Origin: Nostoc punctiforme PCC 73102
GTDB lineage: Bacteria; Cyanobacteriota; Cyanobacteriia; Cyanobacteriales; Nostocaceae
NCBI RefSeq assembly: GCF_000020025.1
Contig: NC_010628.1
Span: 6,450,001-6,482,000, forward strand
Direction: 5' to 3'
Length of the DNA: 32,000 nt
The position numbers and the translations under genes are program-made. The notes under the pieces were generated by a model. That model made no database searches, was not told the DNA's origin, and saw only the letters and a list, made by a program, of their open reading frames with translations. This document shows, piece by piece, positions 4,677 to 32,000 of this stretch; position 1 is the first letter of the stretch; every line of letters starts with the position of its first letter.

Positions 4677-6350
4677 ATGAGTGAAATCCACCTACGTCAA
4701 ATAAAGTCATACCTTCAAAAAACATTTAATGGTTTGATTGACTTATCAGATTACCAAAATAAATCTGAAACAGACAGAGAGTTAATTTTTTTAACAAGAA
4801 GTCTAGCTGCATTTACTTTGATGGTTTTAGCTGATATCTCTCCTCAAGAAGCATCAAAGTCGATAATTGATGGTGGACAGGATAATGGAATAGATTCGCT
4901 TTATTTTGACAGGCGAGAAAAAATAATGTATGTATTACAGTCAAAATGGAAGCAAGACAGTAAAGGTAGTGTTAAAACAGATGAGGTAATGAAATTTACT
5001 AGAGGTTTTAAAGACTTGGTAAATGCTAGATATGACAGATTCAACTCAAAATTTAATAATAAAACTCTAGATATTGAAGAAGCGTTGAATGATGCAGGAA
5101 CAAGATTTGAAATAATTCTTGTCTATTCAGGTCAAACTCCCTTAGCAGATGAACCAAAAAGAGAATTGGATGATCTATTAGGTGAGATGAACGATTCATC
5201 AGATATTGTTAGTATGAGAGTTTATAATCAGGCAAATATATATAATATTATATCTCAAGGAGCATCTGGCAATCCTATAAATTTAGATGTTTGCCTGTTT
5301 GAGTGGGGACAAACAAAAGAACCCTATCAATCATATTATGGACAAGTATCTGCTAGGGAAGTAGCTGATTGGTGGACTAAACATTCTCCTAAATTGTTCT
5401 CTTCAAATATTAGGCTTTTTGTAAAAGATAGTGAAGTTAATGAAGGTATTATCAATACACTAAAAAAAGAACCGGAAAAATTTTGGTATTATAACAATGG
5501 CATAACAGCTTTGTGTTCTAGTATTGGGAAAAAACCGCTTGGCGGTAGTGGAAGAGACACGGGCATATTTGAATGTAAAGATGTCAAAGTAGTTAATGGC
5601 GCTCAGACTGTTGGATCGATAGCAAGAGCATATCAAAATTCTCCTGAGCAAGTTGAAAAAGCAAGAGTTCTTATTCGTTTTATCTCCTTAGAAAATTGTC
5701 CTGAAGAATTTGCTACAGAAATTACTCGATTCAACAATACTCAGAACCGAATTGATCGTCGAGAATTTGTAGCTCTCGATCCAGATCAAGAAAGAATAAA
5801 AAATGAACTTCACTTAGAAGGAATTATTTATACTTATAAGTCAGGTGAATCAATCCCAGATGGAGAAAAAGGTTTTGATTTAAATGAAGCTACAATTAGT
5901 CGAGCGTGCAAACAGAATGAAGTTTCTTTCGCCACGCGAGTTAAAGATAAAATTGGTGTTTTATGGGAAGATATAGAAAAACCTCCATACAAAACTCTCT
6001 TTAATAGATCAGTAAATGGTTCTAACCTTTGGAAATTAGTTCAAATCTTAAGAGTAGTAGAGAATAAATTATCAGAAGTACAAAAACAACGAGATGGAAG
6101 AGAAAAGTTATTTGCTACTCATAGTAATCGTCTCATACTACACCTGGTTTATAAAGCCTTACCAGAGAATTTTTTTAGCATATCATCTGATTTAACCCCA
6201 GTACAAATTGATGATATTCAATCCATGACCTCAGAGTTTTTGGGTAGTATTATGAGTGAAAGTAGCAACCTATTCCCAACTTCCTATCCGGCAAATATAT
6301 TCAGAAATGTCACAAAATGCCAGGAAATTGTGGAAAAAATTTTAAATTGA
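4677..6350 (+). CDS. AIPR-family (abortive-infection phage-resistance-like) protein with an N-terminal Mrr-type PD-(D/E)xK-like motif
   Basis: 557 aa. The N-terminal IIDGGQDNGIDSLYFDRREKIMYVLQSKW resembles the D-x-G-I-D ... Q-x-K core of Mrr-like nucleases. The central YYNNGITALC and VVNGAQTVGS motifs match my memory of the AIPR domain (PF10592). The gene is visibly more AT-rich than glmS. Confidence 0.6.
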   Translation: MSEIHLRQIKSYLQKTFNGLIDLSDYQNKSETDRELIFLTRSLAAFTLMVLADISPQEASKSIIDGGQDNGIDSLYFDRREKIMYVLQSKWKQDSKGSVKTDEVMKFTRGFKDLVNARYDRFNSKFNNKTLDIEEALNDAGTRFEIILVYSGQTPLADEPKRELDDLLGEMNDSSDIVSMRVYNQANIYNIISQGASGNPINLDVCLFEWGQTKEPYQSYYGQVSAREVADWWTKHSPKLFSSNIRLFVKDSEVNEGIINTLKKEPEKFWYYNNGITALCSSIGKKPLGGSGRDTGIFECKDVKVVNGAQTVGSIARAYQNSPEQVEKARVLIRFISLENCPEEFATEITRFNNTQNRIDRREFVALDPDQERIKNELHLEGIIYTYKSGESIPDGEKGFDLNEATISRACKQNEVSFATRVKDKIGVLWEDIEKPPYKTLFNRSVNGSNLWKLVQILRVVENKLSEVQKQRDGREKLFATHSNRLILHLVYKALPENFFSISSDLTPVQIDDIQSMTSEFLGSIMSESSNLFPTSYPANIFRNVTKCQEIVEKILN

Positions 6351-6453: not shown

Positions 6454-7749
6454 TTATTGATTTTGATTATTTGAGACTACAGTACTAGTTTTGTCATTTT
6501 CTAGTTCTCTCATTAGAGAATCAAAACCACTAGCATTGTTTCCACCTTTAGACAATAAAGACTGAATTTTATTTATTATTGCACTCATATTGTCAGAGAA
6601 AAATCTACCAAGATTATTCACAAAGTTTTTCAGTTTCTCAAATATACTAATTTCTACAGTTGAGTACTTATTCACAATTGGATATACAACTTTTCCTTTT
6701 TCTGTTTCATAGTACTCTTGTTCAGGCATCAACATAGATGTAAGTGGTTGCACCTGTTTTGCCATATCTGCTTCAGTTCGTTTATGGCTGAGAAATAAAA
6801 CATCGTAAACCTTTCCGTTCCAGCTAGCCCAATAATGGTTTTGGAAAAACCACCGCTTACCATCATCACAATTAGGCTTTTTGCCTTGGTATGGTGTAAC
6901 TCCAGCTTCACTCAAAAAAGGTTTGGCAATGCTTTCAACTGTTATTTTCTCGATGCCAAAATATTCTTCTGCAACTTTTTTAAATGCACGGGCTAATGTC
7001 TGACAATCTCCTTCTGGAGAGCCTTTCAAGAGAGTTTCTTGGCTCTTGCTCACCATTGTGTATTGAAATTGGATATTGCCAAAGTTTTTGAATAGTTGTT
7101 CCAGGATTTTATCTTCTGGTAATGTGTCGTCTATACTATTTACTAGTGTTTTGGCTAGTGAGTAATCTTGTAAAAATTTTTGTTTTTTATCTGCTGAGTT
7201 ATTTGCTGCTAATATTCCTTCAGAGCTTGCTTGGATGTTTCTGCTACCTGCTAAGGTCGTCTGCTGTCCTTCTTGGTTTTGCAAAGTAGCTGCATTAAGT
7301 TGGCTGACAACAGAAGTAGCTACTCTATCAGCTTCTTGCTCATACCGATCTCCTGGTTGGCCAACAGTGAGTTTTGGCTGTATTAGTGGTTCCTGAAGGG
7401 GTTGCATTTGTGCCAGCGATACAGTATCAGCACGTTTGATCGCCATTTTGTCAATGTTATGACCAAACTGAAAAGAGTGTTCCTTCCCTTGCTGCAACGA
7501 CTCATTCATTTTTGCCTGTAATACAGTGAGTCGTTCCTGTCCGTCTGGCGTGATCGTGCCATGCTTGGCTTGGATTTGGAGTTTTGTTGCCTCAAATTGA
7601 TACTCTTGAAATTTCTGATTCTCTACTTTTGCCTGTACTATAGGCTTCTTGGAGCCAAGTTGAGAGTGAGTAGTTAAAAGGTGCTGACCTTGCTCTGACT
7701 TAGAAGCGGATGAGTCAGCTTTTTTGTGGATTTGTAGCCGTTCTTTCAT
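6454..7749 (-). CDS. DUF4157-leader protein with a putative Cys-His-Asp (papain/transglutaminase-like) C-terminal effector domain
   Basis: The ORF track starts at a TTG (7761); I prefer the ATG at 7749 (MKERLQIHKK...). LTVGQPGDRYEQEADRVATSVVSQL is the signature motif of DUF4157, the eCIS-associated toxin leader. Downstream come GDCQTLARAF, about 57 aa later FQNHYWASW, then GKVYDVLF. Confidence 0.6.
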   Translation of the reverse strand: MKERLQIHKKADSSASKSEQGQHLLTTHSQLGSKKPIVQAKVENQKFQEYQFEATKLQIQAKHGTITPDGQERLTVLQAKMNESLQQGKEHSFQFGHNIDKMAIKRADTVSLAQMQPLQEPLIQPKLTVGQPGDRYEQEADRVATSVVSQLNAATLQNQEGQQTTLAGSRNIQASSEGILAANNSADKKQKFLQDYSLAKTLVNSIDDTLPEDKILEQLFKNFGNIQFQYTMVSKSQETLLKGSPEGDCQTLARAFKKVAEEYFGIEKITVESIAKPFLSEAGVTPYQGKKPNCDDGKRWFFQNHYWASWNGKVYDVLFLSHKRTEADMAKQVQPLTSMLMPEQEYYETEKGKVVYPIVNKYSTVEISIFEKLKNFVNNLGRFFSDNMSAIINKIQSLLSKGGNNASGFDSLMRELENDKTSTVVSNNQNQ

Positions 7750-7963
7750 CGCTGGTTTCAAAAGTCAATAGTGGTTAATCTATATATTATGTCACTTCAG
7801 ATTGCTTGATTACTTATACTTAAGTCAAATACTGTTAAAACGTATCATCCATTTTTTCTACAAGACTGACGCAAACCATAGCTAAAACCTTCATTTTCAG
7901 CTAAGAGCAATTCATGTAGACGCAAAGTCTCTTCCCGCAGGGTATTGCCCAGTTTTGCGTCGG

Positions 7964-8884: not shown

Positions 8885-9071
8885 CTTTTAGTGCTGAGTG
8901 CTGAGTGCTGAGGAGTGCTGAGTGCTGAGTATGAGAGAGTTATGAGTTTTAAGTTATGAGTTAGGAGTTTTCGTTTTTAACTTTTAACTCCTCACTATTC
9001 ACTCCTAACTTTTCTTGACTCAGCACGGGCTAAACCTTAGCTATCCGCTAACGTTACTCAGCACTCAGAAC
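8885..9071. repeat. Heptamer tandem repeats (gtgctga/tcagcac family) forming a long imperfect hairpin in the serA-prmA spacer
   Basis: tagtgctgagtgctgagtgctgaggagtgctgagtgctgagt at the left end is complementary to actcagcactcagaactca at the right end. The inner aactcct/aggagtt arms also pair. Confidence 0.7.
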
Positions 9072-11276: not shown

Positions 11277-12080
11277 ATGTTAAACTACAACTTGCCAAGG
11301 CACTTGCCCTCAGCCGAGGAACTACCAGATTCTGATGAAACGCCCGTGGATAATGAACTGCAAGAATTGATACCAGGTTTGCTGAAGGCGATCCTGCTGC
11401 TACTTTGGGCAGAACGTATGGACTGGCTATTTGCCATAGATATGGGTATTTATTATCACCCCGATAAACCGCCCATTGTGCCAGATGGGTTTTTGAGCTT
11501 AGGGGTAGAGCGGTTTTATGATGAAGAGTTGCGTCCCAGTTATGTACTGTGGGATGAAAATGTTGTACCGATTTTCGTGCTAGAAGTAGTTTCTCAAAAT
11601 TATCGCAAGGAATACACGACTAAATTGGATGAATATGAGGCTTTGGGTGTACTTTACTATGTGATTTATTCCTCTCGTCGCCGCCGCAAACCTCATCTGG
11701 AAGTACATAAGTTAGTTAATGGTAAGTATGAATTGCAAGAGGGAAACCCCGTTTGGCTACCAGAAATTGGTTTAGGAATTGGTTGCGAAAGAGGAAATTA
11801 TTGTGGCGTAACGCGGGAATGGATGTATTGGTATGATGAGCAAGGACAACGATATCTCACGCCCGCAGAACAAGTAAAACAAGAAGTACAACGCGCTCAA
11901 CAAGAAGCACAACGCGCTCAACAAGAAGCACAACGCGCTCAACAAGAAGCACAACGCGCTCAACAAGAAGCACAACGCGCTCAACAAGAAGCGCAACGCG
12001 CTAATGTCGCAGAACAACGGGTTCAACAGTTGGCGGAACAATTAAGAGCGCTGGGAATAGATCCAGATAATCTGGTCTAA
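11277..12080 (+). CDS. Uma2/DUF820-family (PD-(D/E)xK fold) protein with a C-terminal heptad-repeat tail
   Basis: I prefer the ATG at 11277 (MLNYNLPRHLPSAEELPDSDETPVDNELQ) to the track's TTG at 11262. LPDSDxxPVDN, PDGFLSLGV and FVLEVVS match the Uma2 core. The tail is KQEVQRA followed by 5 x QQEAQRA, ending LRALGIDPDNLV. Confidence 0.8.
   Translation: MLNYNLPRHLPSAEELPDSDETPVDNELQELIPGLLKAILLLLWAERMDWLFAIDMGIYYHPDKPPIVPDGFLSLGVERFYDEELRPSYVLWDENVVPIFVLEVVSQNYRKEYTTKLDEYEALGVLYYVIYSSRRRRKPHLEVHKLVNGKYELQEGNPVWLPEIGLGIGCERGNYCGVTREWMYWYDEQGQRYLTPAEQVKQEVQRAQQEAQRAQQEAQRAQQEAQRAQQEAQRAQQEAQRANVAEQRVQQLAEQLRALGIDPDNLV
11877..12002 (+). repeat. 21-bp in-frame tandem repeat (about 6 units; 4 identical, 1 with a synonymous change, 1 degenerate)
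   Basis: caacaagaagcacaacgcgct repeats head-to-tail from 11898. A degenerate unit lies at 11877-11897, and the last unit has gcg in place of gca. Confidence 0.95.
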
Positions 12081-13927: not shown

Positions 13928-14824
13928 CTATTGTTTTTTAGGAATAACGTTCCTGATTCCACTTTTAGCAGAGACAGTATCACCTTTGTAGCGAGGGATG
14001 ATATGAATACTGGCGTGCATAATATTTTGACCTGCGGCTCTATTGATGTTCATTCCTACATTAAAGCCATCAGGCTCAAATTCACTTTTGATAATTTCTT
14101 GTACTTTGTTCACCATAAACCAGCAAGCAGATTGCTCTTTAAATGGGAGTTCAAAATAGCTGCTAACATGACGTTTAGGAATAATTAGAACATGTCCTTT
14201 AATTATTGGATAGCCATCAAAAATAGCATAAGCAGTTGCTGACTCAGTTAATAGTCTGAGAGTTTTATGGGGATTACAGAATATACAATAGTTAGATGAA
14301 TTTCGCTGATGATTATAGTGGACATACTCATATACTTCCCGATATTCATCTAAGCAAATTGAAGTAAAGGGAAGTTTTGCAATACACTGATAAGTAGGTT
14401 TTTTATGAATATAATGTTCTCGAAACCCTTCTTTTCTAATATCCCTTCTCACAGCATAATAAGCTTTTCCTCCTGGTTTTAATAAGTGCGATATTTCCAT
14501 TAAGACATTAGTTTGTTCTTCGGGAAATAAAACATTTAAAACATAAAAGCAAATTATTGTATCAAATTTATTATCAGGATATTCTGGAAAATAATAAGGG
14601 TCATAGCCTGTAATATCACAACCTTTTTGGCGCAATATTTTAACATCATTACCAAAGCCACAACCAAAGTCTAGTATTTTGCCTTGGAGAAGGTTTTGAT
14701 TTAATAAAAACTGTGCCGGAAATGATAGATAACTTCTTTCGATCGCAGTAAGATGACTGAACTGATTTTTTTGCTGTTTCATAGAATTTTGGTGCTGATG
14801 TCCCAAAATTATTATTCCCAGCAT
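13928..14824 (-). CDS. Fusion protein: class I SAM-dependent methyltransferase (N-terminal) + HIT-family domain (C-terminal) with a variant H-x-S-x-H motif
   Basis: SAM motif I is ILDFGCGFGNDV, followed by GYDPYYFP and FYVLNVLF. The C-terminal half reads GHVLIIPKRHV...NRAAGQNIMHASIHIIPRYKGD...GIRNVIPKK, which is HIT-like. The start may instead be the internal ATG 14 codons downstream (MKQQKNQ). Confidence 0.75.
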   Translation of the reverse strand: MLGIIILGHQHQNSMKQQKNQFSHLTAIERSYLSFPAQFLLNQNLLQGKILDFGCGFGNDVKILRQKGCDITGYDPYYFPEYPDNKFDTIICFYVLNVLFPEEQTNVLMEISHLLKPGGKAYYAVRRDIRKEGFREHYIHKKPTYQCIAKLPFTSICLDEYREVYEYVHYNHQRNSSNYCIFCNPHKTLRLLTESATAYAIFDGYPIIKGHVLIIPKRHVSSYFELPFKEQSACWFMVNKVQEIIKSEFEPDGFNVGMNINRAAGQNIMHASIHIIPRYKGDTVSAKSGIRNVIPKKQ

Positions 14825-14844
14825 CTCTTTAGGTTATGCGATGT

Positions 14845-15666
14845 CTACAACGCGCTATTCGGTGTCGCATCAGGGTCAATACCTAGCTCACGTAACTTAG
14901 CTGCTAATATATCAGCACGTTGACGTTCCTGTTCAGCACGTTGGCTTTCCTGTTCAGCGCGTTGACGTTCTTGTTCAGCGCGTTGACGTTCTTGTTGGGC
15001 TTGTTCGCTGCTCCACAACAGCAAATTCCCTTTTGTATCCCACCAGCGCAGCCAATTCATGGTTTGACATAATCTTTCACCTTGCCAAATTCCCAGAAAT
15101 AACTCTAACTCAGGAATCCAGTAACGTCCATTAGCGTCTCCTTGCTGCAAAGTATATTGTCCATTTTGCAAGCACCGTAATTCTATGCTTGGTTCGTAAG
15201 GGTCGTAGGTTACGTAGGTTGGAACTTGGAGAATCTTTTCGTAATAATAGAGTTTACCGTAAGGCGGAGTTGAACGGACTGATAATTCTCCACCTTCTGT
15301 ATCTGAGAGAAATTCCATCACTACAGCCACAGCAGCACCTTCTAAATTTGGGGTGTAGCTACGACGAACTACATTTGTTCCCACAGACTGCACTTGAGGA
15401 ACGTAAAACCAGTCTGGGGCTTTGACAACGATTTTTTTGTTGACTGTGGCTACAAGCCCAAAATTAGAGCCAATCAGCATTTGAGGTTGGATGCGTCCTG
15501 CGGTTCCCAAAGCATCAGTAAGCGCAGCAGCGATCGCAGGTTGTTGAATATTTTCCACTGGATCGTCAGGTAAAATGAAGTCGGCTGGCAGTGCTTCCCA
15601 AGTAACAATTGGTTCTTTTTGGATGGGGTTAACTTGTAGAACCATAAAATTATTCCTAATATCCAT
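14845..15666 (-). CDS. Uma2/DUF820-family protein with a C-terminal heptad-repeat tail (paralog of 11277..12080)
   Basis: 273 aa. LPADFILPDDPVENIQQ, APDWFYV and AVVMEFLS match the Uma2 core. The tail is EQERQRA-type heptads ending LRELGIDPDATPNSAL. Its stop lies 20 nt upstream of the methyltransferase-HIT start on the same strand. Confidence 0.8.
   Translation of the reverse strand: MDIRNNFMVLQVNPIQKEPIVTWEALPADFILPDDPVENIQQPAIAAALTDALGTAGRIQPQMLIGSNFGLVATVNKKIVVKAPDWFYVPQVQSVGTNVVRRSYTPNLEGAAVAVVMEFLSDTEGGELSVRSTPPYGKLYYYEKILQVPTYVTYDPYEPSIELRCLQNGQYTLQQGDANGRYWIPELELFLGIWQGERLCQTMNWLRWWDTKGNLLLWSSEQAQQERQRAEQERQRAEQESQRAEQERQRADILAAKLRELGIDPDATPNSAL
14913..14996 (-). repeat. 21-bp in-frame tandem repeat, 4 units (imperfect)
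   Basis: The four units are cagcacgttgacgttcctgtt, cagcacgttggctttcctgtt, and cagcgcgttgacgttcttgtt twice, read directly. Confidence 0.9.
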
Positions 15667-16031: not shown

Positions 16032-17221
16032 AGCTAATCGGCACTAAAGTTGCATAATAATAATGTGAAGTAGTATAAAAGCAGCTATGCCGCCACCAGC
16101 CAAAGACTTTTTAACGCCGTCACAAGTCGGCAAGCTACAGCAGGCTTTAAAAGAAAGCGGCCAACCACACGTCAGGGAAAGAATTTTAATTATTCTTCTA
16201 CAAAATGATGGGAAGCCGCAACACGAAATTGCTAAATTTTTAGGCTGCTCGCCTAGAACCGTGGCGTATTGGTGTATGCATGGAGATCCAGACAATTTAG
16301 AAACCCTGCATAATAAAAGAGAGTACGAACATTATCGAAAAGCTACTCCTGAATATATTGAACTGTTATTAAAAACTGTTGACCAAGAACCATCAGATTT
16401 AGGGTATGAATTTGGCAAATGGACGGCAGAGAGATTAACCACATATTTAACCGAAAAAACAGGGATAGATTTAAGTAGCTCTCAAGTAAGGAGGATATTA
16501 AAGCGAAAAAAGTATAGTTATATCTGGGCTAAATATGATCTGGAAGATAAACAAAAACCCCAAGAAAGAGCCAAGTTCAAGGAGAAACTTACTCAATATT
16601 TATCAATAGCGCGAGAAGAACCAGACCGTTTGCAGGTATGGTTTTGGGACGAGAGTGGTTTTAGTTTACGAGTGATTCGCCGAAAGAACTGGGGTAAAAA
16701 AGGAAAACGCAAAAATGTTCTATTGCTTCGGCGCTGTGGTCGCGTTAATGTGATGGGAGCAATCAGAGAATCAGACCGAAAACGGGTATGCTTTTTTGTC
16801 AAAAAAGGTAATGCAGATATTTTTTATGAGCAATTACAACAATTGAATGAATTAATTAAACAAGAGTGGGCTAGTATTGGGAACCTTGGTAAAGATTTCT
16901 CCAAGCATGGGCCGAAGATTATTTTAATTTTAGACAATGCTAGTTTTCATAAGCGCAAAGATATTATAGCTAAAATATCTGAAGAATTTCCAAACTTTGT
17001 TTTAGAATTTTTGCCTGCTTACAGCCCTGATTACAACATTATCGAATTAGTTTGGCACTCATGTAAAGAATATATTGCTCACCGCCTGTTTAAATCAGTA
17101 GATGAATTGCAAGCACTGCTAGATAAACTATTAAACCAAGGTGAGTTACTGATTAAGTGGCATCGGAAAATCAAAAATAAAGGCAATGTCAACTATGTTG
17201 CAGCTTAAATGCTGATTAGCT
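16032..17221 (+). mobile_element. IS630-family insertion sequence, apparently intact, flanked by a TA target-site duplication
   Basis: Left end agctaatcggcactaaagttgcataataat and the reverse complement of the right end, agctaatcagcatttaagctgcaacatagt, form imperfect terminal inverted repeats (about 22/30). TA lies at 16030-16031 and again at 17222-17223. The element carries a single DDE transposase ORF. Confidence 0.85.
16087..17208 (+). CDS. IS630-family DDE transposase
   Basis: 373 aa. It has an N-terminal HTH region, then WFWDESGF (D), LILDNASFHK (D) and PAYSPDYNIIELVW (E). This is the IS630/Tc1-mariner-like DD(35)E layout. The stop codon lies inside the right IR. Confidence 0.9.
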   Translation: MPPPAKDFLTPSQVGKLQQALKESGQPHVRERILIILLQNDGKPQHEIAKFLGCSPRTVAYWCMHGDPDNLETLHNKREYEHYRKATPEYIELLLKTVDQEPSDLGYEFGKWTAERLTTYLTEKTGIDLSSSQVRRILKRKKYSYIWAKYDLEDKQKPQERAKFKEKLTQYLSIAREEPDRLQVWFWDESGFSLRVIRRKNWGKKGKRKNVLLLRRCGRVNVMGAIRESDRKRVCFFVKKGNADIFYEQLQQLNELIKQEWASIGNLGKDFSKHGPKIILILDNASFHKRKDIIAKISEEFPNFVLEFLPAYSPDYNIIELVWHSCKEYIAHRLFKSVDELQALLDKLLNQGELLIKWHRKIKNKGNVNYVAA

Positions 17222-17797
17222 TATTGTGGCTAATTGCCGGAATGATTGATGCGAAATCTGTTGGTGAAATTCTTGATTACTTGATGGTGCAAGATGGCGA
17301 AGAGGAAAAATTTATCAACTTGTTTTTAGCAGCTAAGTGTCTTGCAGAAGTGAGAAATCGTTCGGTAATTGCGTCAGTGGCTAATAAATTATTTGGCAAG
17401 GTAAAAGACTTAACCAAATATGACCTCTGGTATTATTACACCTATGACAATGCAGAAGAAACTCAGCTAGTTCAGACTCTCAAAATTCCTCAAGAACTTT
17501 TAGATATATTGAATGAATCATCTTGAGCAGATTTTCATGGTGAACTGTTACCCAAGCTGAAAACATGAGAACAGTAAAAAGTAGCATAACTCCAAAAAAG
17601 CGATCGCTAGACATCTACCCAAATTCTCATAAATTATTCTCGAAAATTACGCACCCAGAACACCGTAAGCATTGCCCGTAATATCGTCTAGCGGTAGTTG
17701 CAGTAAACAAAGCCGACTTTGATCGCAACAATCAGATAGAAAGTAGTTTTTCAATCCACTTAATTTAGTGTTAACAGCTAGATCAGAGGTGGCATGA

Positions 17798-20671: not shown

Positions 20672-21511
20672 TTACAGTTTCCCCGTGAAGACTCGTTCAG
20701 CCGGGCCTGTCATGTAAACCCGTTGGTCGATTTCTGACCATTCAATTTGCAAGGGACCACCAGGTAATTCTACAGTGGCAGTGCGATCGCATTTCCCGGT
20801 TAACACACCAGCCACTAAAGAAGCGCAAGCACCAGTCCCACAAGCTAATGTAATCCCAGCACCCCGTTCCCACACCCGCATTTTCAAATAGTCACGGCGT
20901 ACCACTTGAATAAATTCAGTATTTATGCGTTGGGGAAAAGCTGGGTGATGCTCAAATTTCGGGCCTATGCTTTCTAGTTCAATTGCTGCTACATCTTCCA
21001 CAAAGGTAATGCAGTGAGGATTTCCCATATTTACACAAGTTACTTCCCAAGTTTTCCCCGCCACTTCCAACGGCACAGAGATTACTTTTTCTTCAACAGG
21101 TGCAAGAGTAGTAGGAATTTCGCCAGCGAGTAATCTGGGTAAACCCATGTCTACTTTAACTAGACCATCAGATAAGAGTTGGGGAGTCATTACACCACCC
21201 AAAGTATGAATGCGATATGAATCTTTATTTCGGGATTGACCTTCTAAATCTGCCAAAAAGCCAGCTAAACAGCGAATGCCATTGCCACACATTTCTGGTT
21301 CTGAACCATCAGAATTAAAAATCCGCATGGTATAGTCAGTGCCGTTTTCTCCAGGTAGAGCAAAAATGACACCATCAGCACCGATACCAAAATGGCGATC
21401 GCATAATTGGATAGCTTGCTCTGGAGTCAAAACGGGCAAAGATGACGAGCGATTGTCAATCAGAATAAAATCATTGCCCAGACCATGATACTTAGTAAAT
21501 TCGATTGCCAT
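20672..21511 (-). CDS. dapF: Diaminopimelate epimerase
   Basis: 279 aa. It has [19 protein letters not shown] and both catalytic Cys motifs (EMCGNGIRC and [10 protein letters not shown]). Confidence 0.95.
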
Positions 21512-21580
21512 TTTCTCAAGGATGAATTATCAAGGATTAGTTACTCTTTATTTTGCCTTGTAGGTTCATCTTTACTAAAA

Positions 21581-21799
21581 ATGCTTACCGAATTTGACAC
21601 CACTTTACCCAGTATTAGACAAGTCCAAAACCTGATTAAACAAACAACGCCAGTTGAGTTAAAGCTGGTGACTCAGGATGTACTCACAGGAAAGGTTGTA
21701 TGGCAAGATCCACAGTGTATCTGTATTGCTGATGAAAACAGTCAGCAAACCACCGTTTGGAAACAAGCGATCGCATACATCAAACCGAAAACAAGTTAG
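21581..21799 (+). CDS. hfq: Cyanobacterial-type Hfq
   Basis: I use the ATG at 21581. The track's upstream start would overlap dapF. The 72-aa MLTEFDTTLPSIRQVQNLIKQTTPVELKLVTQDVLTGKVVWQDPQCICIADENSQQTTVWKQAIAYIKPK closely parallels the roughly 70-aa Synechocystis/Anabaena Hfq as I remember it (LPSVRQVQ...PVE.KL..G....G...WQD). Confidence 0.8.
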   Translation: MLTEFDTTLPSIRQVQNLIKQTTPVELKLVTQDVLTGKVVWQDPQCICIADENSQQTTVWKQAIAYIKPKTS

Positions 21800-31103: not shown

Positions 31104-31343
31104 CTCGTTAACGGAGATAAAAGACTCATTAATGGAGTTCAAAGGCTCTTTAATGAGTATCAAAGACTCATTAATGGAGTTCAAAGGCTCATTAATGGAG
31201 TTCAAAGGCTCATTAATGGAGTTCAGAGGCTCATTAATGGAGTTCAGAGGCTCATTAATGGAGTTCAGAGGCTCATTAATGGAGTTCAAAGGCTCTTTAA
31301 TGAGTATCAAAGGCTCATTAATGGAGTTCAGAGGCTCATTAAG
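31104..31343. repeat. 21-bp tandem minisatellite, about 11.4 units, three unit variants
   Basis: The unit types are ctcattaatggagttcaaagg (A), ...cagagg (G) and ctctttaatgagtatcaaag(a/g) (B). The order is degenerate-A-B-A-A-G-G-G-A-B-G-partial. Repeat-spanning ORFs appear on both strands, a repeat artefact. Confidence 0.95.
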
Positions 31344-31585: not shown

Positions 31586-32000
31586 TCAAGACTGATGATT
31601 CCGCCGCAAGTCTTCCAGATTTTCACGAATGGTTATTGTATCGGGATGATTTGTCCCCAAGCATTGTTCAGCGATCGCCAAAGCTTCAATGCACAAAGGT
31701 TGGGCTTCCCTGTAAATTCCCTGTGAATAATAGAGTAATGCCAAATTGTTCAGGCTAGTTGCCACATCGGGGTGTTCATCCCCCAGCAGGCGTTTTCTCA
31801 TGGACAAAGCTTCGATGTACAAAGGTTTGGCTTCGCTGTACCTTCCCTGTGAATCGTAGAGGAGTGCCAAATTGTTCAGGCTACTTGCCACATCTGGGTG
31901 TTCATCCCCCAGCAGGCGTTTTCTCATCGACAAAGCTTCGATGTACAAAGGTTCGGCTTCGCTGTACCTTCCCTGTAAATAGTAGAGGAGTGCCAAATTG
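31586..32000 (-). CDS. TPR-repeat protein (kinesin-light-chain-like 42-aa TPR units), C-terminal part only; the gene continues past the right edge
   Basis: It has repeating LLGDEHPDVA(S/T)SLNNLALLY.SQGRYSEA.PLYIEALSMRKR units. The frame is still open at position 32000. Confidence 0.85.
   Translation of the reverse strand, partial: NLALLYYLQGRYSEAEPLYIEALSMRKRLLGDEHPDVASSLNNLALLYDSQGRYSEAKPLYIEALSMRKRLLGDEHPDVATSLNNLALLYYSQGIYREAQPLCIEALAIAEQCLGTNHPDTITIRENLEDLRRNHQS

Follow-up and report, generated by a model that had tools for sequence, protein, structure and literature searches.

The gene described here lies in a 32,000-nucleotide (nt) stretch of the Nostoc punctiforme PCC 73102 genome (contig NC_010628.1, positions 6,450,001 to 6,482,000; below, the window) and encodes a class I S-adenosylmethionine (SAM)-dependent methyltransferase fused to a HIT domain. 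The HIT half lacks the central histidine that serves as catalytic nucleophile in this family, as does every close cyanobacterial homolog that we examined, whereas most related fusions from other bacteria retain it and lie directly downstream of an HNH_4 nuclease gene that is missing from the cyanobacterial loci. The window gene is therefore best described as encoding a class I methyltransferase joined to a probable HIT pseudoenzyme domain and orphaned of its nuclease, the HNH pair itself lying outside the window. A first-pass annotation of this DNA had instead paired the fusion with the Uma2 gene beside it, a pairing that comparison across genomes does not bear out. The fusion and its parts are as follows:

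13928..14782, minus strand: methyltransferase-HIT fusion gene, 284 amino acids (aa) from Met15; the longest open reading frame (ORF), to 14824, encodes 298 aa
14318..14755, minus strand: class I SAM-methyltransferase half, residues ~24-169 (298-aa numbering); matches Pfam Methyltransf_23/11/25/12
14651-14674, minus strand: SAM-binding motif I, LDFGCGFG
13976..14299, minus strand: HIT-fold half, residues ~176-283
14276-14287, minus strand: CxxC (C180, C183)
14003..14017, minus strand: degenerate histidine triad H270-A-S272-I-H274, with serine at the central nucleophile position

The HIT half lacks its catalytic histidine

The C-terminal half belongs to the HIT superfamily. Residues 191-280 match Pfam HIT (PF01230; 60.8 bits, cutoff 21.5), a profile search of the PDB recovered 3imi and 1y23 (E ~1e-17), and Foldseek returned 1y23, 3imi, FHIT and Rv2613c at probability 1.00; Bacillus Hit and the diadenosine tetraphosphate (Ap4A) phosphorylase Rv2613c are among these matches. 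When the triad is aligned to the HxHxH motifs of 3imi, 1y23, 2eo4 and 3l7x, serine replaces the central histidine: the fusion reads AGQ-NIM-H270-A-S272-I-H274-IIPRY, compared with AGQTVFHFHLHLIPRY in solved HIT proteins. S272 likewise lies opposite His96 in a gapless alignment with FHIT, whose histidines fall at positions 94, 96 and 98, in agreement with the literature. In Hint, Fhit and GalT the central histidine is the residue to which the nucleotidyl intermediate is covalently attached, and the His96Asn mutant of FHIT binds its substrate without hydrolyzing it. PDB entry 2fhi, which represents this mutant, appears among the Foldseek matches.

The substitution is not peculiar to N. punctiforme. 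Our homolog counts rest on the best 120 of 2763 fusion relatives in the database, all cyanobacterial where the source is named and 76-96% identical to the window protein. At the central triad position these 120 cyanobacterial proteins carry serine (99), asparagine (17), threonine (3) or glycine (1), and none carries histidine. The remainder of the domain is well preserved. CxxC, the sequence motif of the zinc-binding HIT subgroup, is kept in 119 of the 120, C180 and C183 being invariant in the alignment; the SAM motif of the other half is kept as well, and the HIT half retains H270, H274, N259/N261 and Q266. The HxHxH signature of a catalytically competent HIT enzyme is absent from the window protein and, because the catalytic histidine has been lost, the nucleotide hydrolase/transferase role has probably gone from this copy.

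Two HIT proteins of other architectures, P0175 (297 aa, with an N-terminal HIT domain) and P0162 (266 aa), have HxSxH or HxNxH where the triad would be, and nucleophile loss in this HIT subfamily may thus have occurred more than once.

The methyltransferase half retains its SAM-binding motifs

Residues 38-126 match Methyltransf_23 at 51.8 bits (cutoff 27), and the DFGCGxG and GYD motifs of class I SAM methyltransferases are invariant, with D52, G54, C55, G56 and G58 unchanged in cyanobacterial and canonical homologs alike. An AlphaFold2 model of the fusion built from 46 diverse sequences (predicted local distance difference test score 86, predicted template modeling score 0.85) gives this half an alternating strand/helix topology. 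Foldseek matched the N-terminal half to generic small class I methyltransferases only (among them 3h2b, 7wzg and 1y8c), enzymes of the small-molecule or peptide type that offer no clue to the substrate, and the fusion carries no DNA-methyltransferase signature. We infer that the methyltransferase half is active.

This half had been likened to the 'DNA phosphorothioation-associated putative methyltransferase' family, a comparison that holds for the N-terminus only. The TIGR04096 match scores 67.3 bits, whereas the curated cutoff is 150, and is confined to model positions 5-82 of 478, so the fusion, being below the cutoff and not full-length, falls outside the family. PADLOC found no Dnd, Ssp or Pbe genes among the fusion, its two Uma2 neighbors and the cyclase, and Pfam found none among the window's other large ORFs. 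The first-pass annotation also knew of no described system with this architecture. The architecture has in fact been catalogued by NCBI, under the name 'bifunctional class I SAM-dependent methyltransferase/HIT family protein', while it is true that we found no paper describing what the fusion does. Our literature search likewise returned no description of the HNH pairing discussed below or of TIGR04096, an uncharacterized family whose accession was mentioned in no paper found; PMC10853773, PMC12839542 and PMC8565338 describe neither the fusion nor the HNH pair nor TIGR04096.

Canonical relatives are coupled to an HNH nuclease

An exhaustive scan covering 1.84 billion representatives returned full-length fusions at 36-56% identity together with many stand-alone halves, and the more distant of these fusions carry the canonical HxHxH. 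The top 120 fusions matching a non-cyanobacterial profile are 50-65% identical to the window protein over ~95% of its length, and 118 of them have HxHxH. Named canonical fusions come from metagenome-assembled genomes (MAGs) of Bacteroidales, Ignavibacteria and Actinobacteria, and a Salinibacter fusion with 45% identity was identified separately.

In four independent lineages the canonical fusion lies directly downstream of an HNH_4 gene of 356-370 aa, the two reading frames overlapping by 13 nt in three lineages and being separated by 5 nt in the fourth. The pairing was counted in 80 metagenome loci. There, an HNH homolog stands immediately upstream of ~61 of 63 informative canonical fusions (60 by a distance rule, plus locus L243); two lack it, and four further canonical fusions have too little upstream sequence. 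Histidine-less fusions had no HNH gene beside them at any of the 7 informative metagenome loci, and a profile search whose positive controls scored 365-714 bits found no HNH homolog either in the window or across the 1.04 Mb of 91 cyanobacterial loci. The HNH_4 and methyltransferase-HIT genes are a widespread and tightly coupled pair.

The HNH partner is a protein of ~360 aa with an invariant D-H...N...N core and an N-terminal domain of ~200 aa that bears an invariant T-Y-K motif. In searches with a 14-sequence profile only the HNH core, which is Cas9-like, was recognized; the N-terminal domain matched nothing in Pfam or the PDB. Neighbors of the pairs in the four lineages include SspB, an SspC fragment and PbeA/TIGR04095 ('dnd restriction enzyme'), as well as an SpbK-like protein, Schlafen/AlbA_2 proteins and variable CBASS cargo. 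PADLOC applied to 118 ORFs flanking the pairs reported PbeA, SspB/C, DRT UG5-nitrilase, Mokosh MkoA and the candidate families S05 and S06, a scan that is descriptive because it has no matched control and so does not measure enrichment. Some canonical relatives (for example, locus L099) lie within Ssp/Pbe phosphorothioation loci.

The HNH plus methyltransferase-HIT pair appears to be undescribed in the literature. We infer that it acts as an immunity or restriction-like unit, and put it forward as a candidate new defense module. It had been suggested for the window that a nuclease fold, a methyltransferase and a nucleotide-handling domain make up the parts list of a defense system; that suggestion suits the non-cyanobacterial relatives, where the nuclease is HNH, and does not extend to the Uma2 pairing.

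Loss of the histidine coincides with loss of the nuclease

In a neighbor-joining tree, which has a distant outgroup and no bootstrap and is in effect unrooted, all the histidine-less fusions group in a single compact clade with short branches, which lies within the longer-branched canonical sequences. The clade includes metagenomic members with alanine, glycine or valine at the central position, and none of its members falls below 76% identity to the window protein. A single nested clade implies that the losses of the nucleophile and of the HNH partner coincide and probably took place once, and the direction of change would have been from canonical to histidine-less. The coincidence suggests in turn that HIT catalysis was needed only when the fusion was coupled to a nuclease.

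The HIT domain is not decaying. The ratio of nonsynonymous to synonymous substitution rates (dN/dS) of the fusion is ~0.13 across 80 Nostoc orthologs, with values of 0.136 for the methyltransferase half and 0.125 for the HIT half, and mean pairwise identity within the clade is 83% and 82%, respectively. Both halves are therefore under purifying selection.

The Uma2 gene is a neighbor of the fusion in Nostoc

The genes surrounding the fusion are the following:

14845..15666, minus strand: upstream Uma2 (PD-(D/E)xK-like) gene, 273 aa, with a C-terminal heptad-repeat tail; Pfam Uma2 34.2 bits
11262 (or 11277)..12080, plus strand: second Uma2 paralog, convergent, with a QQEAQRA repeat tail; Pfam Uma2 57.7 bits
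12179..13819, minus strand: seven-transmembrane (7TM)-PAS-GGDEF diguanylate cyclase gene, 3' of the fusion; Pfam HisKA_7TM 208 bits, GGDEF 154 bits, and PAS
16087..17208, plus strand: IS630-family transposase lying upstream of Uma2; matches Pfam DDE_3 (146 bits) and HTH domains

The ORFs of the fusion, the two Uma2 genes and the cyclase are present where the first-pass annotation had put them, and its domain calls (Uma2, class I SAM methyltransferase plus HIT, and 7TM-PAS-GGDEF) are all backed by Pfam. Its distances depend on the start codons chosen. The 20-nt gap between Uma2 and the fusion is correct for the longest fusion ORF. Among the top 120 homologs, however, 284 aa is the commonest length, and most are 282-289 aa long and start at the equivalent of Met15. 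Since most homologs have this length, Met15 (nt 14782) is probably the true start, and the gap is accordingly 62 nt rather than 20. The cyclase lies 138 nt from the fusion stop, as reported, when measured from its first ATG, and 108 nt when measured from a TTG start. Both Uma2 proteins score above the Pfam PF05685 cutoff of 27 bits, a PD...E-x-x-S...K pattern can be read directly in both, and they are ~30-37% identical to each other.

The Nostoc/Desmonostoc set consisted of the best 80 species-level loci from a genome-contig scan and speaks to shallow synteny only; other cyanobacterial lineages were sampled through exact-protein look-ups. Gene order (Uma2, fusion, optional GGDEF, Uma2, serA) is for the most part conserved across the 80 loci, and the fusion is full-length in all of them. 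The upstream Uma2 gene is intact in 57, a fragment or remnant in ~8, absent from 11 and not assessable in 4; it is thus missing or broken in 19 of the 76 informative genomes that keep the fusion. Its distance from the fusion varies between 39 and 235 nt among Nostoc species, rather than showing the short fixed spacing or overlap expected of operon-like coupling. A promoter/terminator scan of the locus, which bears on co-transcription in neither direction, returned no more sites than were found in shuffled controls.

Outside the Nostoc/Desmonostoc group, none of eight cyanobacterial lineages (Crinalium, Symploca, Fischerella, Nodularia, Nostoc sp. PCC 7524, a Leptolyngbyaceae MAG and two further cyanobacteria) has a Uma2 gene adjoining the fusion. 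The only Uma2 gene found there, in a single locus, is 2.8 kb away on the opposite strand, and searching every ORF of these loci iteratively for Uma2 bears out the absence of an adjacent copy. Two ORFs upstream of the fusion were considered as cryptic Uma2 genes and rejected: one of 226 aa in Symploca, which gave no Pfam or iterative Uma2 match, and one of 117 aa in PCC 7524, which gave no match in the iterative search.

The proposal of a two-gene module with Uma2 as a neighbor conserved across genomes is therefore not supported, and the result is one that the first-pass annotation had itself listed as a refutation: the fusion occurs without an adjacent Uma2 gene in all eight other lineages and in a quarter of the informative Nostoc-type genomes, the linkage being common to Nostoc and its closest relatives only. 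The adjacency is no more than descent and Uma2 abundance would give; Uma2 is probably a neighbor by recent shared ancestry in a Uma2-rich genome family, and we consider it very likely that it is not a functional partner of the fusion. The check with PADLOC that had been recommended for the neighborhood, applied to the fusion, both Uma2 genes and the cyclase, identified no anti-phage system and returned weak matches only. With PADLOC-DB v2 the fusion gave a weak match to the HIT protein ThsC (35 bits) and a mad2 motif match, the second Uma2 gene, which is syntenic in most Nostoc loci, gave a weak match to the candidate family PDC-S03 (31 bits), and there was no match for the upstream Uma2 gene or the cyclase.

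A proposed history and function of the fusion

We propose that these cyanobacteria, which are mostly filamentous, acquired a nuclease-coupled methyltransferase-HIT gene through one of their ancestors. Two changes would have occurred along the stem of the cyanobacterial clade: the HNH partner was lost, and a small, variable residue (S, N, T, A, G or V) took the place of the central HIT histidine. After the loss of HNH, the methyltransferase half would have kept all of its SAM-binding motifs, and the HIT half its fold, CxxC, flanking histidines and nucleotide-pocket residues, under continued purifying selection. The gene would then have been retained for its methyltransferase together with a nucleotide-binding HIT fold. 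Without the histidine, the HIT-like domain is predicted to form no nucleotidyl-histidine intermediate and instead to bind a nucleotide-containing ligand without cleaving it, much as FHIT His96Asn does. That ligand may be the methyl acceptor or a regulator; the substrate could be a nucleotide or a dinucleoside polyphosphate, or else the end of a nucleic acid that is nucleotidylated or capped. Taken as a whole, this explanation, in which the fusion is a stand-alone exapted methyltransferase, orphaned of its nuclease, whose HIT domain only binds nucleotide, seems to us somewhat better than an even bet.

A more specific version would make the window gene a nuclease-free descendant of an immune module in which HIT acts as a 'substrate-trapping' binder that steers the methyltransferase to a nucleotide-type target, possibly dinucleoside polyphosphates or RNA capped with them (NpnN-capped RNA). 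To our knowledge no bacterial methyltransferase has been assigned to either target, and we regard this version as doubtful.

Alternative explanations

Several points weigh against the exapted methyltransferase, and some of them favor one or another alternative. Two concern the tree. Because the tree is in effect unrooted, the canonical-to-degenerate direction rests on parsimony; and the losses of the histidine and of HNH amount to one event, not to 7 or 120, which makes their correlation suggestive rather than a statistical proof. The others concern base composition and gene neighborhood, the chemistry left to the HIT half, and the persistence of Uma2 in Nostoc.

As the first-pass annotation had remarked, the fusion is visibly AT-rich, with a GC content of 0.333 (0.24 at third codon positions, GC3) against 0.405 for the window and 0.42-0.48 for its neighbors. 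The same contrast with the flanking DNA recurs in every one of the eight cyanobacterial genomes compared (the window and 7 loci), and in most sampled genomes the gene has a GC of ~0.33 and a GC3 of ~0.23 with flanks of ~0.41. Toxin-antitoxin genes of the HicAB or ParE type adjoin the fusion in 3 of 8 non-Nostoc contexts, and its neighborhood differs from genus to genus. AT-richness and toxin-antitoxin neighbors are more readily reconciled with an accessory or mobile gene than with a settled housekeeping one and, with the changing neighborhood, keep an accessory, occasionally mobile gene viable as an interpretation. The corresponding alternative is that the fusion is a mobile single-gene defense or addiction-type element spreading horizontally among filamentous cyanobacteria, to which may be added a GC content near that of the canonical relatives, a patchy distribution with named members mostly in filamentous lineages, and the IS630 element nearby in the window. 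We nonetheless consider it unlikely, given the low dN/dS and short branches, a clade topology that roughly tracks taxonomy, stable synteny with serA across Nostoc, and the lack of any defense-model match beyond the weak HIT one. Moreover, no full-length fusion was found in 72,556 plasmids, 50,697 phage records or viral contigs, which yielded generic stand-alone HIT domains only.

The AT-richness of the fusion persists despite an apparently old, mostly vertical history. One of the phage matches, at 21221-21652 of Streptomyces phage phiSASD1 (NC_014229), is a stand-alone homolog of the HIT half with 34% identity; it adjoins a gene annotated as phosphoadenosine phosphosulfate (PAPS) reductase, another adjacency of HIT with a gene of the sulfur/PAPS-reductase type.

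The HIT half could also work without its nucleophile. In a truly bifunctional protein it would act as a hydrolase or transferase by a non-canonical mechanism, through attack by water aided by H270 and H274 or through a metal held by CxxC, and hydrolysis by way of the two remaining histidines is possible in principle. Conservation of the HIT half to the same degree as the methyltransferase half, retention of H270, H274, N259/N261, Q266 and CxxC, and the activity of the nearest solved relatives (Bacillus Hit and the Rv2613c Ap4A phosphorylase) are all compatible with such a mechanism. Variation at the nucleophile site among S, N, T, G, A and V argues against a new catalytic residue there, however, and FHIT His96Asn is established to bind without hydrolysis; we judge a still-catalytic HIT half to be improbable, slightly more so than a mobile element.

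The persistence of Uma2 next to the fusion in ~75% of Nostoc species, under purifying selection (dN/dS 0.087 where Uma2 is intact), might reflect a lineage-specific functional link, which is unlikely. The fuller form of this idea, that the Nostoc Uma2 and fusion genes are a restriction/modification-like or nucleotide-signaling immune pair in which Uma2 perhaps replaces the ancestral HNH, can draw on their shared strand, their adjacency in 57 of 76 informative Nostoc/Desmonostoc genomes, purifying selection on both genes, the nuclease coupling of the fusion's relatives and the PDC-S03 match of the second paralog, but is very improbable in view of the 19 genomes that keep an intact fusion with Uma2 absent or broken, a spacing that varies where HNH-fusion pairs overlap, the eight lineages without an adjacent Uma2, a loss of the histidine that the tree places before the Nostoc-specific adjacency, and the want of a PADLOC system match in a window of mostly housekeeping genes.

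Other features of the locus

Both Uma2 genes end in in-frame 21-nt repeats that encode heptads, ERQRAEQ in the upstream gene and QQEAQRA in the second. The tandem arrays comprise 4.0 copies at 14912-14996 and 6.0 copies at 11878-12002, respectively, and the matching segments vary in length across the 80 Nostoc loci, which suggests a variable copy number. The 7TM-PAS-GGDEF cyclase is full-length in only ~5-6 of these loci, the remainder having fragments or nothing between the fusion and the second Uma2 gene; this points to recurrent decay, and the cyclase belongs to no conserved unit.

The IS630 transposase sits between the Uma2 gene and ada/alkA and marks a rearrangement-prone spot. It occurs at the same position in none of the 80 related Nostoc loci, where only two distant IS630-like matches (23-27% identity) were found, elsewhere in loci L065 and L074; in two others, L029 and L037, ada-alkA lies ~2.7 kb from Uma2. 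A 105-aa ORF directly after the transposase (17209-17526, plus strand) has no Pfam match and is possibly the remnant of a disrupted gene.

By Pfam, most of the other genes in the window have housekeeping roles: glmS, prmA, serA, ada, alkA, dapF, a DHQ-synthase-like gene and a catalase. Apart from the transposase beside Uma2, the exception is an AIPR gene ~8 kb away (4677-6350, plus strand; PF10592, 139 bits), an abortive-infection-type gene in a low-GC patch (0.31-0.36) and the sole clear defense-type gene of the window, which converges with a 435-aa ORF lacking a Pfam match (6454-7761, minus strand). Further repeats comprise AGTGCTG heptamers at 8890-8947, between prmA and serA, a 21-nt tandem repeat of 11.4 copies at 31104-31342, and a 126-nt repeat at 31674-32000 within a TPR gene that runs off the end of the window.

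Implications

The Uma2 adjacency is not worth pursuing as a defense module and tells us nothing new about Uma2 function. The ancestral HNH plus methyltransferase-HIT pair, which occurs in defense islands and phosphorothioation loci, is in contrast a reasonable phage-defense candidate, and the coinciding losses of its nuclease and of the catalytic histidine offer a concrete handle on its role. Since the HIT nucleophile is missing in every protein of the cyanobacterial set examined, several hundred cyanobacterial proteins are probably misnamed as 'bifunctional methyltransferase/HIT'.

Comparison with known systems

TIGR04096 shares with the fusion an N-terminal stretch of ~80 residues bearing the SAM motif I, GYDP and YVLNV signatures; it differs in ~400 further model positions that go unmatched, and in that the window has no dnd or ssp genes. 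ThsC of type II Thoeris is a HIT protein tied to a defense system (PMC8565338). Like the canonical fusions, it exemplifies a HIT-family domain recurrent in defense neighborhoods, and it accounts for the 35-bit PADLOC match. However, neither ThsA nor ThsB lies near the fusion, ThsC has no methyltransferase, and the match reflects generic HIT similarity.

A close counterpart is the HNH_4 plus methyltransferase-HIT pair. The window protein and the pair's fusions belong to one family, 50-65% identical over their full length, with the same domain order and SAM motifs. The copies in pairs have HxHxH and an upstream HNH gene, whereas the window copy has serine, no HNH gene and a setting among housekeeping genes.

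For the HIT half alone, a parallel is FHIT His96Asn (2fhi), which binds substrate but is dead in hydrolysis. The two share a fold (Foldseek template modeling score 0.71 to the target), the mutated residue aligns with S272, and asparagine occupies that site in 17 of the 120 cyanobacterial homologs. The FHIT protein, however, is a laboratory mutant of a stand-alone diadenosine triphosphate (Ap3A) hydrolase, whereas in the window clade the change is natural, fixed clade-wide and found in a domain fused to a methyltransferase.

Dam and CcrM are orphan DNA methyltransferases derived from restriction-modification systems. By analogy, the fusion may be another case of a modification enzyme that outlives its nuclease partner under purifying selection, with the difference that it has no DNA-methyltransferase motifs. 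If it is indeed an exapted nucleotide-directed methyltransferase, it would represent a domestication from defense to housekeeping like that of orphan Dam and CcrM, acting on a nucleotide rather than on a DNA base.

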